From: an uncultured virus (IMG/VR IMGVR_UViG_3300004805_000005)
Taxonomy: Duplodnaviria; Heunggongvirae; Uroviricota; Caudoviricetes
Direction: 5' to 3' (one strand)
IMG/VR virus record: IMGVR_UViG_3300004805_000005
DNA length: 20,000 bases
Part shown: piece by piece, positions 10,633 to 19,732 of the stretch
Layout of the letters: each line of letters opens with the position of its first letter
Position numbering within the stretch: the stretch's first letter is position 1
The notes under the pieces: generated by a model
What the model was told of the DNA's origin: nothing
What the model saw: the letters and a program-made list of their open reading frames with translations, nothing else
The model's database searches: none
Program-made: the position numbers and the translations under genes

Positions 10633-10718
10633 TAGCAGTAAGAACATCAACTAGTAATCGATGTTCAACCACTAGGGAACTAATGGCTGTCCTGCTAGAG
10701 ATACTTATAGGGAACGTA

Positions 10719-11840
10719 ATGAAATCAATCAAAATAAAGCTCTTAGACCAAAATTCTTCCAAAACCAATAAGCTTCTTTCTATTTTATCTGATCTTGGAT
10801 TGATTTCAAAAGCGTATCTTCCAATAAGACACAAAGAGATTCAAGACAAAACTTATCTACCATTCAAAGAACATTATTCGAACTTTCGTGTCTTATATCC
10901 TTCTATGAACTCTGGCGTTATACAATCCCATCTTCGATCATTGGATTCTTCTATCAAAATCTATATCGGTTGGTGTAAGAAGAAACATAAGCTGGTTTCT
11001 TTTCCTGATCACATTAAAACGTCTATTCCTCTTCGAAACGATATGTTTTCATTTGAATACAACGAAGAAACCAAAACATTTGACGCATGGCTAAAATTCC
11101 TCCGTCTATACTTTCCTCTATCTCTTTGCTCATATCACAAAAAAGCACTACAAGACATGGAATCTATTTCAGATTCTTCCATTATCAAACACAACGGAAC
11201 CTTATATCTTCGATTGGTCTTCAAAACAAAGGAAAAGACTATTTCTACTAACAAATCCATAGGAATAGATATTGGAATAGCCAAACCAATAGTCTGCTCG
11301 GATGGAAAGCAATTCGGCTCTGGTCGATTTATCAAACACAAGAAACTTGAATTTGGTAAAAAGAGAGCCAGAAACCAATCTAAGAAAGAAGCAATTCTAC
11401 AAACACAATCTCGATGGACAAACGATTTGAATCATAAACTCTCCCGTGAGTTGGTCGACTATTGCCTGTCTCAAGACATAGACGTTCTAGGTCTTGAGAA
11501 GTTGGAAGGCACTCAGCTATCAAACAGGAGATTCAGGAAGTACAATTGGGCATTCAAGGACTTACTCAGTAAGATAACCTATAAGGCCGAATTGGCTGGA
11601 CTGAGAGTCATAAGTGTTGACCCCAGAGGAACGAGTCAGACTTGTTCTTGCTGTGGTCTGAAGGATAAGACCAACAGGATTTCTCAAAGCCTATACGTAT
11701 GCTCGTGTGGGTCTGTGATGAATGCTGACATCAATGCGGCTAAAAACATTCAACGCCTTTCGACGTTGAATGGGTCACAAATGAATCTGACCAACGGATG
11801 CCTTGTACCGGAAACCCAGCAATCTTTAGTGGCTGGGTAG
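10719..11840 (+). CDS. tnpB: RNA-guided endonuclease TnpB
   Basis: RuvC-I IGIDIG, RuvC-II GLEKL, zinc finger TSQTCSCCG...CSCG, RuvC-III NADINAAKNI; D/E/D triad intact. Likely start MKSIKIKL at 10719 (AGGGA SD). Confidence 0.92.
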   Translation: MKSIKIKLLDQNSSKTNKLLSILSDLGLISKAYLPIRHKEIQDKTYLPFKEHYSNFRVLYPSMNSGVIQSHLRSLDSSIKIYIGWCKKKHKLVSFPDHIKTSIPLRNDMFSFEYNEETKTFDAWLKFLRLYFPLSLCSYHKKALQDMESISDSSIIKHNGTLYLRLVFKTKEKTISTNKSIGIDIGIAKPIVCSDGKQFGSGRFIKHKKLEFGKKRARNQSKKEAILQTQSRWTNDLNHKLSRELVDYCLSQDIDVLGLEKLEGTQLSNRRFRKYNWAFKDLLSKITYKAELAGLRVISVDPRGTSQTCSCCGLKDKTNRISQSLYVCSCGSVMNADINAAKNIQRLSTLNGSQMNLTNGCLVPETQQSLVAG

Positions 11841-12788: not shown

Positions 12789-12849
12789 TGCAATTGATAC
12801 ACTTTTTTTAGTGGGTAAATCATTAAATGTATATTTTTATTCATTATTA

Positions 12850-12863
12850 TATAAATAATTGTA
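12850..12863 (+). promoter_or_regulatory. T4-type late promoter TATAAATA(ATTGTA) for terminase fragment 1
   Basis: Exact TATAAATA at 12850-12857; ATG at 12867. Confidence 0.72.
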
Positions 12864-12866
12864 TAT

Positions 12867-13523
12867 ATGAAAAAACAAATAACGGCTGGAATTAACAACG
12901 ATGATCTCGATTATGACCAAACATATCTAAGAAATAAGCGTCTACCTAAGGCAGACGTAGAGTTTACATGGACACCAGAAATGGTGGCAGAGATCAAGAA
13001 ATGTACGGAAGACGTACAATATTTTGCAAGTAATTATTTCTATATCGTAACAAGTGATGATGGTAAACAAAAAATTAAATTGTATACTGTACAGAAACGT
13101 GCGTTAAAAGCCCTGCAAAAATATAGATTTAATATCATAAATGCATCCCGACAAACTGGAAAAACAACGCTAATGACAATTTATGCTCTTTGGATGACTT
13201 GTTTCGAGGAATATAAACGTGTTGTTATTGTCGCTAACAAGGAAAATACCGCTATTATGATTCTAAGGCGTATTGCCTTGGCCTATGAAGAGCTTCCAAA
13301 CTGGCTAAAACCCGGAGCAGTTCAGTATGGAAAGAAAGAAATCATATTCGGAAATCATTCAAGTATAGGTATTAGTACAACTACTGGATCGGCTGTAAGA
13401 GGAGACACGGTAAATTGTGTCGATGGAACAGGTATGGTCAACATAATAGATAACACTGGAATTATATATAATATACCATTAGAACTTCTTTCTCAAGTCG
13501 AAACCGTGAATATAAATGTGTAA
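12867..13523 (+). CDS. terL: Large terminase (gp17-like) fragment 1: N-terminal ATPase part (183 aa) plus split-intein IntN1 (35 aa, from 13416)
   Basis: Q motif LYTVQ, Walker A SRQTGKTT, ANK...YEELPNWL, AVRG; then CVDGTGMVNI...IPLELL, an intein block-A-like tail. Confidence 0.93.
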   Translation: MKKQITAGINNDDLDYDQTYLRNKRLPKADVEFTWTPEMVAEIKKCTEDVQYFASNYFYIVTSDDGKQKIKLYTVQKRALKALQKYRFNIINASRQTGKTTLMTIYALWMTCFEEYKRVVIVANKENTAIMILRRIALAYEELPNWLKPGAVQYGKKEIIFGNHSSIGISTTTGSAVRGDTVNCVDGTGMVNIIDNTGIIYNIPLELLSQVETVNINV

Positions 13524-13529
13524 TTTATA

Positions 13530-13541
13530 TAAGTATATGTA
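13530..13541 (+). promoter_or_regulatory. Late-promoter-like motif TAAGTATATGTA followed by AGAGG SD for terminase fragment 2
   Basis: Fits TAARTA-N4-TA in the 27-nt gap between fragments 1 and 2. Confidence 0.5.
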
Positions 13542-13550
13542 GAGGTTAAT

Positions 13551-15188
13551 ATGTTAGCAGATATAATAAATAATTCAAACAATCATAGTATAATTGCGTT
13601 TATAAAACATAATAAAGAATTGCAAAATGAATTAATAGACAAAACAAAATATTTAAACAATTTCTATGTTTATAGAGACATAACACAAAGATTATATCAT
13701 TATATGAATGATATTAAAATCATACCCAGAGATAAACATGGATGGTATAAAAAATTTGAATCTTTAGATAATGGGTACGGAGAAAAGTTACAGCCAGTTA
13801 GACTCGGAGAATTTAGCAAACTATCTGTACAGGATATAACAAATTATATATGTAGTGTGGAAAGCATTCCATCAGATACATATTTGATAGAATTTATTAA
13901 AAATAAAACCAATTTCCTAGATCCATACAATCCATCGATTCCATTAAGATTATCATATATAAAAGAAAATATCAATCATCCTATATTTACTACCGAAAAA
14001 CACACCACATTACTAAAACCAACAAGAAAACCTAAAAAATATATTATAGATAATTATAGACAATATCTAGCAGAAGATAATAAAATATTGTTCGTAAAAA
14101 AATGGTTGTTGTCTACTGGATCACACCGAAAAAGAATAACAAAATCAATAAAAGCTATCCCTATGATATGTGATTATATCAACGCATTTGCAATAGAACA
14201 TAAATTAGATATTACAGACTATTTTCAAATATCATATCATATGGTATATAATATAACTACATATCCAAATTGTTCTTGCTGTGGAAAGAGTATCGATAAG
14301 AAAAGGTTTAATTCACACTATTGTGCATATCCAAAAACATGTTCTATGTACTGTAATAATATATTAAGAGAAAACATACAGAAAAGACTCATAGCCAATA
14401 AAACCAACAGCGGTAATTTTAATACCAATATTGGGAAAAACGAAGAATATCTATTGAGACTGATATCTAAACTTAAGAAATTAAATATAACAAAAACCCA
14501 TAGAATTGGATCGTATTTCGTAGATGGCATAGATATAGATAAACATATATGCATCGAAGTACAGGAAAAATATCATCTATATAAAAATAGGTTTGAAAAG
14601 GATAAAACAAAATTTGAACACATTATTATAAATGGATATAATATTTTATGTGTATTTGATCTAACTGGCATCAATGAAAAGGGATTAACATACCTAAAAT
14701 ATATAGAATATTTTAAAAATAAATATAATGAAAAGATTACATTTATTAGTATTCTACCATCCAAAACAAAAATATTAACACAGAACGGTTGGAGTATATT
14801 CTGTGGTATAAAAAAATCAAACATACCACAAAATACAATAACAATACAAAGCAAAAACAATCAAATAACATGTACACCAAAACATTTACTTTTATGTAAT
14901 GAAAAGTTCATATCCGCAAAGGATATTAAGGTAGGGGACGTACTAGATTCCTTCGATGACATTAATAAAAATAAAATAATTAATATCCATAATACAACCG
15001 AAAGAATAGTTTATGATGTTATAGAAACTGAAGACAATACTTTTATTTATAATAATTTAATAATTCATAACTGTATAATTATTGATGAATGTCTTGGTGG
15101 AAGTGAAACTATAGATATCAAAAACAAACAAACCGGAGAAATACGAACTATACCAATAGAACATCTTCTCTTGGAAGAATATAAATAA
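13551..15188 (+). CDS. terL: Terminase fragment 2: putative homing endonuclease (~400 aa), IntC1, 6-aa extein CIIIDE (Walker B, 15072-15089), IntN2 (32 aa)
   Basis: Zn finger CSCC...CSMYC and nuclease-like YFVDG...IEVQEKYH; KILTQNGW, block B TCTPKH, KVGD, block F VYDV, block G IHN|C; CIIIDE; then CLGGSETIDI...IPIEHL. Confidence 0.88.
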   Translation: MLADIINNSNNHSIIAFIKHNKELQNELIDKTKYLNNFYVYRDITQRLYHYMNDIKIIPRDKHGWYKKFESLDNGYGEKLQPVRLGEFSKLSVQDITNYICSVESIPSDTYLIEFIKNKTNFLDPYNPSIPLRLSYIKENINHPIFTTEKHTTLLKPTRKPKKYIIDNYRQYLAEDNKILFVKKWLLSTGSHRKRITKSIKAIPMICDYINAFAIEHKLDITDYFQISYHMVYNITTYPNCSCCGKSIDKKRFNSHYCAYPKTCSMYCNNILRENIQKRLIANKTNSGNFNTNIGKNEEYLLRLISKLKKLNITKTHRIGSYFVDGIDIDKHICIEVQEKYHLYKNRFEKDKTKFEHIIINGYNILCVFDLTGINEKGLTYLKYIEYFKNKYNEKITFISILPSKTKILTQNGWSIFCGIKKSNIPQNTITIQSKNNQITCTPKHLLLCNEKFISAKDIKVGDVLDSFDDINKNKIINIHNTTERIVYDVIETEDNTFIYNNLIIHNCIIIDECLGGSETIDIKNKQTGEIRTIPIEHLLLEEYK

Positions 15189-15189
15189 C

Positions 15190-15921
15190 ATGAAAACCAC
15201 AAAAAAAATAAACGAGTGGCAAATATTAACCCCAATAGGATGGTCAGATTTTGGTGGTGTAAAACAATCTAAACGAACAGATACCATTAAATTGATATTT
15301 TCTGATAACCGATCATTAGTTTGTACACCAGAACATAAAATAAAAAATATTAATGATATATTCATATCTGCCAAAGATTCACTAAACCAAAAAATATTAA
15401 CACAGAACGGAGAAACTACAATAGTTGATATAATCTATATGACAGATGATTTATTAGTATATGATATATTAAACGTAGACAAGCAAAATGAATTCTATAG
15501 CAGTAATATAGTGAGTCATAACTGTGCCCATATCGAAGACCATCTGATGAAAGATTTCTGGGCATCCGTTATTCCTACTATTTCATCATCCAAGAAAAGA
15601 ACAACAAAGATTTTCATGGTATCTACACCTAAAGGAACTGGAAATATATTCTATAAGATATTTCAAAAGGCTCTCAAAGAAGAATCCGACGAAAACATGA
15701 AATGGCATGCCGAAGAAATTCATTGGTATGATATTCCCGGAAGAGGAAAATTATGGAAAGCTGACATGGTAGAAGCTTTACATGGGGATAAGTTGCTTTT
15801 CGAACAAGAATTTAATTGTTGTTGTGCCTCTGGATGTACCGTTACTATATTAGATACTTTAACAAACCAACAAAAACAAGTTACATTAGATGAATTATAT
15901 AGAAAAATCCAAGAAAATTAA
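15190..15921 (+). CDS. terL: Terminase fragment 3: IntC2 (111 aa), extein (99 aa, 15523-15819), IntN3 (33 aa)
   Basis: ILTPIGW, CTPEH, VYDI, VSHN|C; extein CAHI...IPTISS...STPKG (coupling motif)...HWYDIPGR...FEQEFNC; then CCASGCTVTI...VTLDELY. Confidence 0.92.
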   Translation: MKTTKKINEWQILTPIGWSDFGGVKQSKRTDTIKLIFSDNRSLVCTPEHKIKNINDIFISAKDSLNQKILTQNGETTIVDIIYMTDDLLVYDILNVDKQNEFYSSNIVSHNCAHIEDHLMKDFWASVIPTISSSKKRTTKIFMVSTPKGTGNIFYKIFQKALKEESDENMKWHAEEIHWYDIPGRGKLWKADMVEALHGDKLLFEQEFNCCCASGCTVTILDTLTNQQKQVTLDELYRKIQEN

Positions 15922-15932
15922 ACGGAACCCAA

Positions 15933-17108
15933 ATGAATAATAGATATAAAATTCTCACCCCCACAGGATTTCAACATTTTACAGGTATTCGTAAATTATC
16001 TGGAGAGTTGTATGAATTAAAAACTAATACTTGTACTATAAGCGCAACGAAATATCATCCATTTATGTGCAATGGAAACAAAACCCCCCTAGCTGCACTA
16101 TATTCTGGAGATGTTATAGATACTATCAATGGAACAGAAAACATCATTTCAATAACAAAACTACATAAGACAGATAATGTATATGATATTATTGGTGTTG
16201 AAAATGGTGAGATGTATTATTGTAATGATATTCTATCACATAATTGCTTTCTAGAAACAGGCGATTCAGCCATTGATATAGATCTGTTAAATGAATTAAC
16301 AGAAAAGTGTCGAGAACCTGAACATATATTCGAAGATGGTCACTATAAGGTATGGAGAGAGCCACAAGGAAACCATATCTATGGAATAGGCGTAGATGTA
16401 GGAGAAGGTATAGGAAAGGCCGCTTCGGTGGTACAAGTACTAGATTTTACAGACTTAACAGACATTCATCAAGTAGCTATGTACTCTGATCGGTATATTC
16501 ATCCTACTAGATTTGCTGGAATTATCAATCGAATCGCGCATCACTTTGGATGCCCACCCGTTTTAATCGAAAGAAATAACATAGGAAGCGAAGTTATTGC
16601 CATATTGAATGAAATTCATCATTATGATAATATTGTTGCCTGTAATCCAGAGTCTTTAGCCTATGGAGATATCAGGCCCGGAATCTTATCACATACTAAT
16701 ACTAAATTAAGCGGTGTGATGAACCTAAGATATTGGTTGAATATATCCAGAGTCGTTAATCTATATGATGCCGGAACGGTTCAGGAATTGAAAACCTTCG
16801 TCAGATATCCAAACGGATCTTGGAAGAAGAAACAAGGCGAAGATGTATTTGATGATAGAGTTATGGCTCTTGTATGGACACTATTTTTATTAGAGCCTGA
16901 TGTAGCTGAACGATATTATGATATTGTTGAGACGGATGATAATGGAAAACCACTAAAGATGGCGGCATATGTTATTCAACAAAATACTATGTTTAAATTA
17001 GATCCATTCTTCCAACAGACACCAAATGCTCCTATGCCTTCTTTCTTTAGTATGTCCCCTTCAGAAGATTTTGATGATCTGAGAAGAGAAGGATGGACAA
17101 GAGCATAG
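15933..17108 (+). CDS. terL: Terminase fragment 4: IntC3 (104 aa) plus nuclease domain (287 aa, from 16245)
   Basis: KILTPTGF, ATKYH, SGD, VYDI, LSHN|C; RNase H-like nuclease motifs IGVDVGEG, IERNN, DDRVMAL. Confidence 0.93.
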   Translation: MNNRYKILTPTGFQHFTGIRKLSGELYELKTNTCTISATKYHPFMCNGNKTPLAALYSGDVIDTINGTENIISITKLHKTDNVYDIIGVENGEMYYCNDILSHNCFLETGDSAIDIDLLNELTEKCREPEHIFEDGHYKVWREPQGNHIYGIGVDVGEGIGKAASVVQVLDFTDLTDIHQVAMYSDRYIHPTRFAGIINRIAHHFGCPPVLIERNNIGSEVIAILNEIHHYDNIVACNPESLAYGDIRPGILSHTNTKLSGVMNLRYWLNISRVVNLYDAGTVQELKTFVRYPNGSWKKKQGEDVFDDRVMALVWTLFLLEPDVAERYYDIVETDDNGKPLKMAAYVIQQNTMFKLDPFFQQTPNAPMPSFFSMSPSEDFDDLRREGWTRA

Positions 17109-17110
17109 TC

Positions 17111-17138
17111 TTGACTTTTATTAGAAGTATGTTAAGAT
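17111..17138 (+). promoter_or_regulatory. Sigma70-like promoter TTGACT-16-(TGn)TAAGAT
   Basis: Same -10 hexamer as at 6366; ATG 17145 follows 6 nt later. Confidence 0.6.
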
Positions 17139-17144
17139 ATTGAA

Positions 17145-17396
17145 ATGAACGAAGAACAAAAACCAATCGAATATCACCACGAGCTAACTGCAACCTTCAA
17201 GAGCAATATGGCCCCTCTTTGGCTCGTATTCAATAACAATATTTTCAACACACAAAACATTACTAATATCGAACGAATGCCAAACGGTGTGTTTATATAT
17301 ACAATTGATAGAAAAATACATACAGTAGAAGTAACAGATGTTAAAACTGTGTGGGAATCTCTACAGAAGGTGTTCTCTGAAGGTGTTACGGGTTAA
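17145..17396 (+). CDS. Hypothetical protein (83 aa)
   Basis: Fills the gap between terL and the convergent kamA; has its own promoter; stops overlap as TTAA. Confidence 0.65.
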   Translation: MNEEQKPIEYHHELTATFKSNMAPLWLVFNNNIFNTQNITNIERMPNGVFIYTIDRKIHTVEVTDVKTVWESLQKVFSEGVTG

Positions 17397-19732
17397 TTCA
17401 CTCTAGGATACTCGCTTATTCCACCAAATAGATTTTGGAAAATAACAGTATCCTTTTTTATTTCCTTTATATAGTTAGGAAGAAGCGGTATTTTTCCCTT
17501 TCCATCCTGTAGATCAACAATAAAAGACGGAACGCCTAATCCACTTATGTGCTTTCTTAAATAATCCATGACTTCTAATCCCTTTTCGATTGAAGTTTGG
17601 AAGTGATTCGTGCCTGTTACCTTGTCACAGCTAAAGATATAGTAAGGTCTAACCCTGAACGTCAGAAGTTTCCTGCATAATTCAGCCATCACTACAGGAT
17701 CATCGTTGATTCCTTTAAGCAATACACTTTGATTGTTAACTGGAATTCCCTTTTCTATCATCTTCAAACAGGCTTTCTTAGATTCTTCTGTTAGTTCATT
17801 AGGATGATTGAAGTGTGTATTCACGAATATAGGATGATATTTGTTTATCATGTTGACTAACTCACTGGTAATCCTTTGTGGCATGACAACCGGAGTACGA
17901 GTTCCAATACGAATGATCTCAACAGATTTAACAGATCGGATCTTGGAGATTATCTTCTCCAATTTAGAAGTAGACATGGTAAAAGCATCTCCACCAGAGA
18001 TGATAACATCTTTAATTTCGCTATGTAGGGTTAGATATTCTACTATTTTTTCTAATTGGCAATCTGTTAAATGATAATCTTTAGAACCGGCTACTCTTTT
18101 TCTAGTGCAATTATGGACAGACGCAAATTCTGCAAGATAGCTTTCGTCGCCTGTAACAGAAAGATCATAGAAAATTTCTTTGACGAATGGTTTTCTTTTT
18201 AAAATGTCTGATACTCTGCAAAAAATATAGCCATTATGTATAAAGGATTCGGATTTTGAAGAAATGGTATCTTTTTGTATACCAAGCCATTTATTGTAAC
18301 CATTTTCATCAAGTATTCTTATTTTATGCATTATTTTTAGGTTGTTTAGTTTTCTTCCATTAATACATACATCTGTTCTATTTTCTTCTTGGTGATAAAT
18401 AGAAGGCATATATCCAAGAGAAACCAACAACATAAAAATTTGACTAGAAAGATTTTCAGAAACAGTATTAAATTCAATAGATTTTGCTTTTGTATGAATT
18501 TTATGTTTATTAGAGAAATATCCATCTCCATCCAGCATTCCGTCAAGTAATTTCTTCTTAAAGCCATCTGTTGCAAAATTTATGATGCTTTCCGATATTG
18601 TTTTTTTATCAGAATATCTGCCGAACAAACTTTCAATTTCTTTGGCTAAGTCTGCATTATAAATCCTTACACAACAATTTGATTTGTTTTTATTTGTCTT
18701 TATTGTTATTTTACCAAGTTTTTGTCGTTTTACTATAATTTCAATTTTTCTTGCCAGTGTTTTTTCTTCTGTTTTGTTTAGCGAAAATCTAATGCATATT
18801 GGTTTGCCATTTTTTCTTTTTGGGATATCTCCTTCTGCTACATATAGTCCAAATAAATACGCCATCTCTTCGTTTTCGTATAGTTTATAATTTTGTAATG
18901 GCAAATTGTTTGTTTTTGGAATTGGAATACAAACATAGTCTCCTATTTCTATTTCGGAAGCATTTATAAAATTAGGTTTGAACTCTGTAACTCTATTAGG
19001 ATGTCTTTTCGCACATTGTTTTCTATTTGGCTTACAGACGCATTTTTCTCCACAATTACATAGAATATCTTTTCTTTTTAAGATTAAGAATGGATGCTCC
19101 TGTGTTGTTTCTATTTTTTGACTTCTTGATGTTTTTAATATTAAAACATCTTTCTTATATGTCCTATTAAACACATCATATACAGTACCAATTCCACCAG
19201 TATGTGTAATAACTGTATCGCCAATAATTATATCTTTAATATCCTTTTGTGTAAAATTGGACATTGTTATTTTTGTTTTGTCGCATAGAGAATGCCTACA
19301 ATACATGCTACATTGGCTCGTAGAGACAATTAACGCCCTGTCTGGGTATCTATGCACCAATCCATCCATAACAGTATCCTCTTCCTCGTGAAGGGGATCG
19401 TTGGATAAGAAGCTAGGATTATCTAATTCCAGAGGATTAGGAATGCATTGGCTGAAAATAGGATCACTATAATCAAACTTTCTTATCAGAGAGAAATAGT
19501 AAGGAGTTATTGCCAAGGGAAAACTCTGTTCGGTTTTTGATATTTCTTCAGAAAGAGAGAAGTGTTCCTTGCTCAATAGATTTTTCAGCCCATCAGAAGA
19601 CTTTATTCGGTTCTTAAGTTGCCATCTCCAGTCGCCCCAACCTTTCGATTGAGGCTTTCTACTACCGGGTTCTTCCGGTTCATTAATGTTGTCTATATTA
19701 GTTAAATTCGGCGTATCAATTTTGTGTATCAT
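17393..19732 (-). CDS. kamA: KamA-family radical SAM enzyme (lysine 2,3-aminomutase-like), intein-containing; ~385 aa after splicing
   Basis: WxDWRWQLKNRI, ITPYY, DPLxEE, GLVHRYPDR, CSMYCRH|CTRKR, ISGGD, RIGTRTPVVMPQRI, THFNHP, NQSVLLKGIND, PYY, and GKIP (PLP lysine); AAGGAG SD. Confidence 0.92.
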   Translation of the reverse strand: MIHKIDTPNLTNIDNINEPEEPGSRKPQSKGWGDWRWQLKNRIKSSDGLKNLLSKEHFSLSEEISKTEQSFPLAITPYYFSLIRKFDYSDPIFSQCIPNPLELDNPSFLSNDPLHEEEDTVMDGLVHRYPDRALIVSTSQCSMYCRHSLCDKTKITMSNFTQKDIKDIIIGDTVITHTGGIGTVYDVFNRTYKKDVLILKTSRSQKIETTQEHPFLILKRKDILCNCGEKCVCKPNRKQCAKRHPNRVTEFKPNFINASEIEIGDYVCIPIPKTNNLPLQNYKLYENEEMAYLFGLYVAEGDIPKRKNGKPICIRFSLNKTEEKTLARKIEIIVKRQKLGKITIKTNKNKSNCCVRIYNADLAKEIESLFGRYSDKKTISESIINFATDGFKKKLLDGMLDGDGYFSNKHKIHTKAKSIEFNTVSENLSSQIFMLLVSLGYMPSIYHQEENRTDVCINGRKLNNLKIMHKIRILDENGYNKWLGIQKDTISSKSESFIHNGYIFCRVSDILKRKPFVKEIFYDLSVTGDESYLAEFASVHNCTRKRVAGSKDYHLTDCQLEKIVEYLTLHSEIKDVIISGGDAFTMSTSKLEKIISKIRSVKSVEIIRIGTRTPVVMPQRITSELVNMINKYHPIFVNTHFNHPNELTEESKKACLKMIEKGIPVNNQSVLLKGINDDPVVMAELCRKLLTFRVRPYYIFSCDKVTGTNHFQTSIEKGLEVMDYLRKHISGLGVPSFIVDLQDGKGKIPLLPNYIKEIKKDTVIFQNLFGGISEYPRVN
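18110..19291 (-). mobile_element. Contiguous intein (394 aa) with LAGLIDADG homing endonuclease
   Basis: Begins SLCDKTKI (Ser1); IGDTVITHTG; block B TTQEHPF; LAGLIDADG motifs LFGLYVAEG and LLDGMLDGDG; block F FYDLSV; ends VHN|C. Confidence 0.93.

Follow-up and report, generated by a model that had tools for sequence, protein, structure and literature searches.

A candidate trans-splicing adaptor that would supply Walker B to a phage terminase divided by three split inteins

Atypically split inteins of the terminase and the so-called fractured genes of phages are both known already, and the locus described here is a variation on both. In the AceL-TerL and GOS-TerL inteins and their consensus Cat (PDB 6DSL), the host gene is that of the large terminase subunit (TerL). 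Fractured genes are phage enzyme genes broken by a split intein, with a Vsr-like nuclease associated, as set out in PMC2677866, where one terminase locus carries an unusually long C-terminal intein half (IntC) of 122 aa. Here, a stretch of 20,000 nucleotides from an uncultured virus (IMG/VR IMGVR_UViG_3300004805_000005; Caudoviricetes), referred to below as the window, was analyzed. Its terL consists of four close-packed open reading frames (ORFs) on the + strand (12867-17108; intergenic gaps of 27, 1 and 11 nt), which are divided by three atypically split inteins, each with a short N-terminal half (IntN) and a long IntC. A conserved enzyme gene is thus broken by split inteins with every part on one strand.

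At each junction, an IntN of 32 to 35 aa that begins with Cys ends one ORF, and an IntC of 104 to 111 aa that ends in HN followed by Cys opens the next. The subject of this report is the tail of the second ORF, where a preliminary description had noted an IntC-hexapeptide-IntN topology at 14760..15188. These coordinates are exact: the segment comprises IntC1 (104 aa, base 14760 being its first codon and residue 404 of protein P0002), the six residues CIIIDE, IntN2 (32 aa) and a stop codon. The formal likeness that the same description drew to SICLOPPS (circular ligation of proteins and peptides by split inteins) is also justified, in that one polypeptide holds an IntC, a peptide with its nucleophile, Cys, at +1, and an IntN. 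The CIIIDE hexapeptide constitutes the sole extein residues supplied by fragment 2, and it corresponds to what we take to be the Walker B strand, a name based on the general features of TerL ATPases and on its hhhhDE form. We consider it probable that the fragment 2 tail is a double-ended trans-splicing adaptor that delivers Walker B to one continuous TerL. This reading is built on the anatomy of the locus, the tiling of its exteins, the catalytic residues, the recurrence of the layout and the fold; splicing, orthogonality of the inteins and the absence of a ring are what it predicts. The features of the locus are as follows.

12867-13523, + strand: terL fragment 1 ORF
12867..13415, + strand: extein 1, N-terminal part of TerL that carries Walker A (SRQTGKTT) and closes with GDTVN; match to phrog_5989 (terminase large subunit) at E 1.1e-44; 81% identity to the TerL of L001
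13416..13520, + strand: IntN1, 35 aa (CVDGTG...), N-terminal half of split intein 1; stop codon 13521-13523
13551-15188, + strand: terL fragment 2 ORF
13551..14759, + strand: domain (about 400 aa) whose core is a Vsr-like/DUF559 (PD-(D/E)XK) nuclease, in frame with IntC1
14760..15071, + strand: IntC1, 104 aa, C-terminal IIHN, long C half of split intein 1; match to CatC (6dsl_B)
15072..15089, + strand: extein 2, CIIIDE, TerL Walker B strand (Asp-Glu); the same in L001, L005 and L006
15090..15185, + strand: IntN2, 32 aa (CLGGSE...EEYK), N-terminal half of split intein 2; stop codon 15186-15188
15190-15921, + strand: terL fragment 3 ORF
15190..15522, + strand: IntC2, 111 aa, C-terminal VSHN; begins 1 nt past the fragment 2 stop, in a different frame
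15523..15819, + strand: extein 3, 99 aa (CAHIEDH...EQEFNC), from the central part of the ATPase domain; phrog_2 TerL, E 5.7e-8; 85% identity to L001 residues 122-219
15820..15918, + strand: IntN3, 33 aa (CCASGC...); stop at 15919-15921; start placed by tiling
15933-17108, + strand: terL fragment 4 ORF
15933..16244, + strand: IntC3, 104 aa, C-terminal LSHN
16245..17105, + strand: extein 4, 287 aa (CFLETGDSAID...), C-terminal (nuclease) part of TerL; phrog_24361 terminase, E 1.8e-6; 75% identity to L001

The exteins of the window tile the TerL of L001, a jumbo-phage relative, exactly, with 0 residues missing and 0 doubled. Extein 1 corresponds to the N-terminal part of L001 TerL (81% identity), extein 2 to residues 115-120 (100%), extein 3 to residues 121-219 (85%) and extein 4 to residues 220-503 (75%). 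Since the tiling is exact, the length of extein 3 is fixed at 99 aa, which bears out the earlier assignment of fragment 3 as IntC2, a 99-aa extein and IntN3. L001 encodes the same TerL, broken at the first site only, with a free GIY-YIG-type ORF between its halves; the site-1 intein halves of the window and L001 share 31-34% identity. Seven of ten related TerL loci (L005-L008 and L011-L013) are intein-free and run straight through ..N-CIIIDE-AAH.. and ..EQEFNC-AFLETG.. Because these relatives read through CIIIDE identically, it is the native Walker B strand. Its letter-for-letter identity with the Walker B of intein-free relatives also indicates that the hexapeptide is constrained by TerL function, not by a peptide product. 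Other combinations of sites occur as well: L009 and L010 have a P-loop intein together with a site-1 split intein, P0005 is split at sites 1 and 3, and P0011 at site 3 only. The window has Cys as the +1 residue of sites 2 and 3, a position at which relatives without inteins have Ala, Met, Val, Thr or Gln.

The breaks between the ORFs are real and not read-through artefacts. Fragments 2/3 and 3/4 lie in different frames, and two in-frame stops part fragments 1 and 2. Every junction is reproduced with zero differences in contigs of other samples (X2 and X4). Contig X2 spans the fragment 1/2 junction, the nuclease-IntC1 junction, IntC1-CIIIDE and the fragment 3/4 junction, and X4 spans CIIIDE-IntN2-stop and the start of fragment 3; X1, X2 and X4 are contigs from Logan rather than raw reads, and X1 is possibly the window's own source. 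At 15817-15825, fragment 3 reads ..EFN-C-C-C-ASGC..., and tiling puts the intein start at the second Cys (CCASGC). A start one residue later (15823) is the alternative, if one extra Cys stays in the spliced product; P0005 shows CSASVC where the window has CCASGC.

All three inteins retain their catalytic residues: Cys1, the block-B T..H (TPKH, TPEH and TKYH), the terminal HN and Cys at +1. Each upstream ORF ends in its short IntN (35, 32 and 33 aa), followed directly by a stop. IntC1 falls in the class of about 100 to 120 aa that has the HINT fold and all splicing blocks but the first. It matches CatC (6dsl_B), from a consensus atypical intein, in sequence well beyond chance (E 6e-5), and its AlphaFold2 (AF2) model superimposes on the same chain with a Z score of 12.4 and a root mean square deviation of 1.6 A (104 aligned of 118 residues). 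The sole PDB match of IntN1 is CatN (6dsl_A), ungapped and weak at E 0.67. IntN2 has no PDB sequence match, and it scores 35.1 bits against the family hidden Markov model (HMM), whose training set includes IntN2 itself. With 28-33% identity among the IntCs and 29-35% among the IntNs, the three inteins are paralogous. Sequence and models place them in the atypically split TerL-type (AceL/GOS/Cat) family, and trans-splicing activity is predicted. The Pfam matches of the terL fragments are below cut-off, and an HMM scan of the window in all six frames found no further inteins.

In the proposed scheme, the four ORFs would be translated from one message, as the gaps of 27, 1 and 11 nt suggest; an AGAGG Shine-Dalgarno sequence precedes fragment 2. 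At junction 1, IntN1 would complete IntC1 in trans and join extein 1 to CIIIDE, with IntN1 plus nuclease-IntC1, the reassembled intein with its endonuclease, as the by-product. IntN2 would complete IntC2 in trans at junction 2, joining CIIIDE to extein 3, and IntN3 would complete IntC3 at junction 3, joining the nuclease part of TerL. With Walker A, Walker B and the remainder of the enzyme on separate pieces, no ATPase site would exist before junctions 1 and 2 react. By their position, IntN2 and IntC1 belong to different inteins: their partners sit on fragments 3 and 1, respectively. The SICLOPPS-like order arises because two related, non-cognate split inteins flank Walker B, 6 residues apart. 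Therefore, the three inteins must be orthogonal, or cognate pairing must beat the tethered half, and the logical point made earlier, that self-pairing of IntN2 and IntC1 must be either disfavoured or exploited, holds. A head start for the cognate pair is conceivable, as fragment 1 would be made first and IntC1 would leave the ribosome ahead of IntN2.

The layout of IntC, mini-extein and IntN is not unique to the window and, judging by protein sequences, recurs in many lineages of this essential gene. An exhaustive HMMER scan with the 148-aa cassette tail returned 526 proteins at E<=1e-3. Counts of the layout refer to 150 of these 526 matches that were listed and annotated with family HMMs; since the query contained both intein halves, the listed matches are enriched for this layout. 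An IntC followed by an extein of at most 14 aa and an IntN was found in 38 of the 150, the window included. The mini-extein measures 6 aa in 13 proteins (C-hhh-DE), 8 aa in 12 and 11 aa in 8, with one protein each at 0, 3, 4, 9 and 14 aa. All 26 mini-exteins of 4, 6 or 8 aa end in Asp-Glu, and 7 of the 8 mini-exteins of 11 aa have Asp-Glu five residues ahead of their end. Thirteen of the 38 are free-standing cassettes of 134-162 aa, known from proteins on ENA/Logan contigs (P0021, P0023, P0029, P0036, P0048, P0054, P0058, P0066, P0067, P0086, P0111, P0134 and P0150), and P0033 and P0045 have a long N-terminal domain and are built like fragment 2 of the window. Judged from the flanking exteins, inteins enter TerL at seven or more points, and four of these cluster around Walker B in a span of about 12 residues.

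Three of the proteins have particularly short exteins. P0150, a free-standing protein of 155 aa, carries CGK, apparently the P-loop Gly-Lys, between IntC and IntN; the mini-extein of P0025 is CLDE (4 aa); and P0121 has no extein residue at all (0 aa), the HN that ends its IntC adjoining the Cys that opens the next IntN. An index-based word search of proteins with the cassette region had returned the query alone among 469 candidates, a sensitivity miss given the 526 proteins found later by HMMER. In a pattern scan of viral contigs, the cassette matched nothing, and P0058 and P0036 gave short partial matches only. In a non-exhaustive literature search, neither a natural IntC-mini-extein-IntN protein nor a gene bearing three split inteins was found described. 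The unusual points of the window are three sister split inteins in one gene, the widespread six-residue extein adaptor and the fusion of a nuclease to IntC.

The choice between tethered and cognate partner was modelled in a competition fold, in which the cassette, with IntN2 attached, was combined with the tail of fragment 1. IntN1 scored 0.62, and the best of three controls scored 0.00; among solved complexes 116 of 157 reach the mark applied, as do 2 of 215 mismatched pairs. At least 70% of contacts are shared between runs, the partner has a predicted local distance difference test (pLDDT) score of at least 62, and the confident cassette contacts all lie in residues 8-110, that is, in IntC1. 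In these models, IntN1 rather than the tethered IntN2 took the IntC1 groove, a result that speaks to likeness and not to binding and that may reflect memory, because a like complex (6DSL) has been solved.

Sequence comparison of the intein halves yields a possible discriminator between site-1 and site-2 IntNs: a hairpin residue is missing in 10 of 20 site-1 IntNs, including IntN1 (CatN is alike), and is present in 38 of 40 site-2 IntNs, including IntN2. In a FastTree phylogeny of 209 IntCs, site labels cluster (40 changes versus 117.4 +/- 3.4 in 500 shuffles) with sites 1, 2 and 3 interleaved, and the window IntCs are neither sisters nor unusually distant (2.4-2.7 versus a random median of 3.08); this tree is weak, with 103 columns and deep divergence. 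Net charge was considered as a pairing rule and set aside, since the values (-4, -2 and -1 for IntN1 to IntN3; +1, -1 and -1 for IntC1 to IntC3) give no clear rule. Mean identity was likewise rejected as a separator of sites, which it barely distinguishes on first-pass site labels, some of them wrong.

Several observations weigh against the adaptor reading. That the TerL pieces are spliced in the window phage is predicted from genes and models. When AF2 folds the cassette alone, IntN2 forms a hairpin and a helix (block pLDDT values of 86, 90 and 78), and only the linker is of lower confidence (68). The IntN consensus is nearly identical at sites 1, 2 and 3. IntN1 and IntN2 share 35% identity and IntC1 and IntC2 share 33%, so that their orthogonality is an expectation. 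Moreover, site-1 and site-2 IntCs are slightly more alike within the same protein (mean 0.340, n=12) than across proteins (0.295, n=3028; p 0.016, from non-independent pairs), which hints at intein spread between neighbouring sites within a lineage and not at divergence for orthogonality. Published work points the same way: cross-reaction occurs between engineered atypically split inteins whose IntNs are 40-50% identical (PMC3443213), atypical splits are involved in most of the cross-talk in a 16-intein matrix (PMC7090010), and the AceL-TerL IntN is accepted by GOS-TerL (review PMC11766414).

These points leave room for a reversible closed state, in which the tethered, non-cognate IntN2 sits in the IntC1 groove and splices never or rarely. 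IntN2 would shield the half-folded IntC1 and limit premature C-cleavage until IntN1 displaces it, and junction 1 would then free IntN2 for junction 2. The AF2 model of the cassette alone (alignment A3) is in keeping with this, being one confident domain with a mean pLDDT of 87.4 and a predicted template modelling score of 0.77. So is the drop of cassette pLDDT to 66-67 in the complex model with IntN1, which comes from a different program and is only suggestive. The spontaneous C-cleavage of an isolated atypical C-terminal half and its suppression by the N-terminal half, as reported in PMC3443213, fit as well. The docking of IntN2, however, is read solely from AF2 confidence values. In addition, AF2 closes fragment 3 too, where IntN3 is likewise ordered (blocks 83, 93, 89 and 79) and extein 3 has a pLDDT of 44-77, so closure appears to be generic completion of the HINT fold and not specific evidence. 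Cassettes with exteins of 0, 3 and 4 aa also exist, in which closure in cis would be strained. We judge a reversible closed state unlikely.

Splicing in cis between IntN2 and IntC1 would go further and free cyclo-CIIIDE, whose release the preliminary description had proposed for intramolecular pairing, as a sizeable by-product or a used product. An insert of six residues is reportedly a length used in the SICLOPPS method, attributed to Scott 1999 and to Tavassoli and Benkovic 2007, so that both the length of the peptide and the order IntC, Cys-peptide, IntN would suit a ring. The topological risk is real, given an ordered IntN2, similar IntNs and the cross-reaction reported for atypically split inteins in PMC3443213 and PMC7090010. 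A ring as the function of the cassette is not supported: the halves are by position parts of different inteins, CIIIDE is fixed by TerL, being identical in the intein-free L005 and L006, and the layout recurs across many lineages in a gene that is essential. Each ring would cost an essential enzyme one Walker B donor, the constant placement of Asp-Glu in mini-exteins of 4, 6, 8 and 11 aa is unlike a free peptide product, and the competition fold favoured the cognate IntN1. The CIIIDE cassette is most likely not a ring-making device, and a natural counterpart of SICLOPPS is very improbable here. It is likewise very improbable that terL is non-functional and in decay, invaded by selfish elements and with pieces that are never joined. 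Three inteins in one gene are an extreme load when most related loci have none, and a second terL could lie outside the window. However, the exteins are 75-100% identical to intact homologues, every catalytic residue of the inteins is kept, the ORFs remain tightly packed on one strand, identical sequence occurs in contigs of several samples, and the architecture is kept in P0033 at 36% identity.

Fragment 2 differs from the other pieces in the domain that precedes its IntC. Its first 403 aa are in frame with IntC1, with no stop and no ATG, GTG or TTG start in between, and contig X2 reproduces this junction. The domain has a sub-threshold match to DUF559 (Vsr-like; E 0.013-0.018) and no PDB sequence match, and BLASTP gives nothing significant between it and the nuclease that stands free in L002. 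P0033 is a full-length homologue of fragment 2 (36% identity over 551 aa, E 4e-95), consisting of nuclease, IntC, 11-aa extein and IntN, and it exceeds the DUF559 cut-off (25.8 versus 20.6 bits). Because P0033 shares this build, the nuclease-IntC1 fusion is conserved and not an assembly error. From these similarities, the domain at 13551..14759 is probably the homing endonuclease of intein 1. The nuclease-IntC build apparently also occurs in P0045, P0051, P0024 and P0127, which have N-terminal parts of 420-450 aa ahead of IntC. In L002 (3857-6434), another viral contig, an intein from this short-IntN family interrupts a clamp-loader-like AAA+ gene at the P-loop (..GSGK, then IntN), and a free-standing 374-aa ORF with weak DUF559/REase matches lies between the gene halves.

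The window derives from an AT-rich tailed phage with genes for a tail tube, head closure and an exonuclease as well as a TnpB-like gene, and freshwater metagenomes contain this phage stretch. No RNA samples are listed as containing the stretch, and a DNA search of 12800-17200 against phage records gave no match. About 1 kb upstream of terL lies a 385-aa transposase-like ORF (10683-11840; phrog_506, E 2.2e-44), for which the label "TnpB-like" comes from the family name only, and a divergent 281-aa ORF matching no known family separates it from terL. Directly downstream, on the - strand, is a 779-aa ORF (17393-19732) with a weak endonuclease-family match over residues 284-428 (phrog_4645, E 8.8e-8) and a HINT-like HMM match that is not significant.

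The locus matters for the way in which an essential TerL would rely on three sister inteins to find the right partners out of nine possible IntN/IntC pairings, with two non-cognate halves tethered 6 residues apart. Nature here in effect tests how orthogonal split inteins of a single family can be, and this family, atypical and with a short IntN, is the most cross-talk-prone in engineered sets. Clean pairs would be a ready source of orthogonal short-IntN inteins and would prove that exteins as short as 3 to 6 residues are tolerated on both sides. If the pairs are not clean, the locus would be the first natural context in which to study intein-driven peptide cyclisation or self-capping. The TerL Walker B is also a hot spot for inteins, which have entered there at four or more points over about 12 residues. 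A broader generalization, which stands a small chance of proving right, would hold that a widespread class of phage adaptors (IntC, 0-14 extein residues, IntN) delivers single catalytic motifs to ATPases (Walker B, or the P-loop Gly-Lys in P0150). The tethered non-cognate IntN would transiently cap the neighbouring IntC, and hairpins differing by one residue in length, together with further variable positions, would act as an orthogonality code for at least three sister inteins per gene that sets the order of assembly.

Compared to the AceL/GOS/Cat inteins, the window inteins have IntNs of similar length (32-35 aa versus 25-37 aa in the table of the review PMC11766414) and an IntC of about 104 aa with all splicing motifs but the first. 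In the cases described, one intein divides a gene into two pieces; in the window, three lie in one gene, two of them only 6 residues apart, and IntN2 is without a detectable PDB match. The fractured genes (Dassa, London, Stoddard, Schueler-Furman and Pietrokovski 2009, PMC2677866) resemble this locus in the phage enzyme gene, the parts on one strand and the Vsr-like nuclease at the break. Each of their loci is broken once, and the endonuclease gene between the two halves stands free, whereas the window has three breaks, the nuclease is joined in frame to IntC1, and breaks 2 and 3 are without any endonuclease (gaps of 1 and 11 nt). Engineered multi-piece assembly (Pinto 2020, PMC7090010) likewise places a middle piece between the IntC of one intein and the IntN of another and needs mutual orthogonality; the engineered sets are unrelated inteins, in contrast to three members of one family with 28-35% identity here. 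Finally, the two halves in SICLOPPS are taken from one intein, and those of the window come from two. Because their partners are on other proteins, the designed outcome in the window would be linear ligation on both sides.

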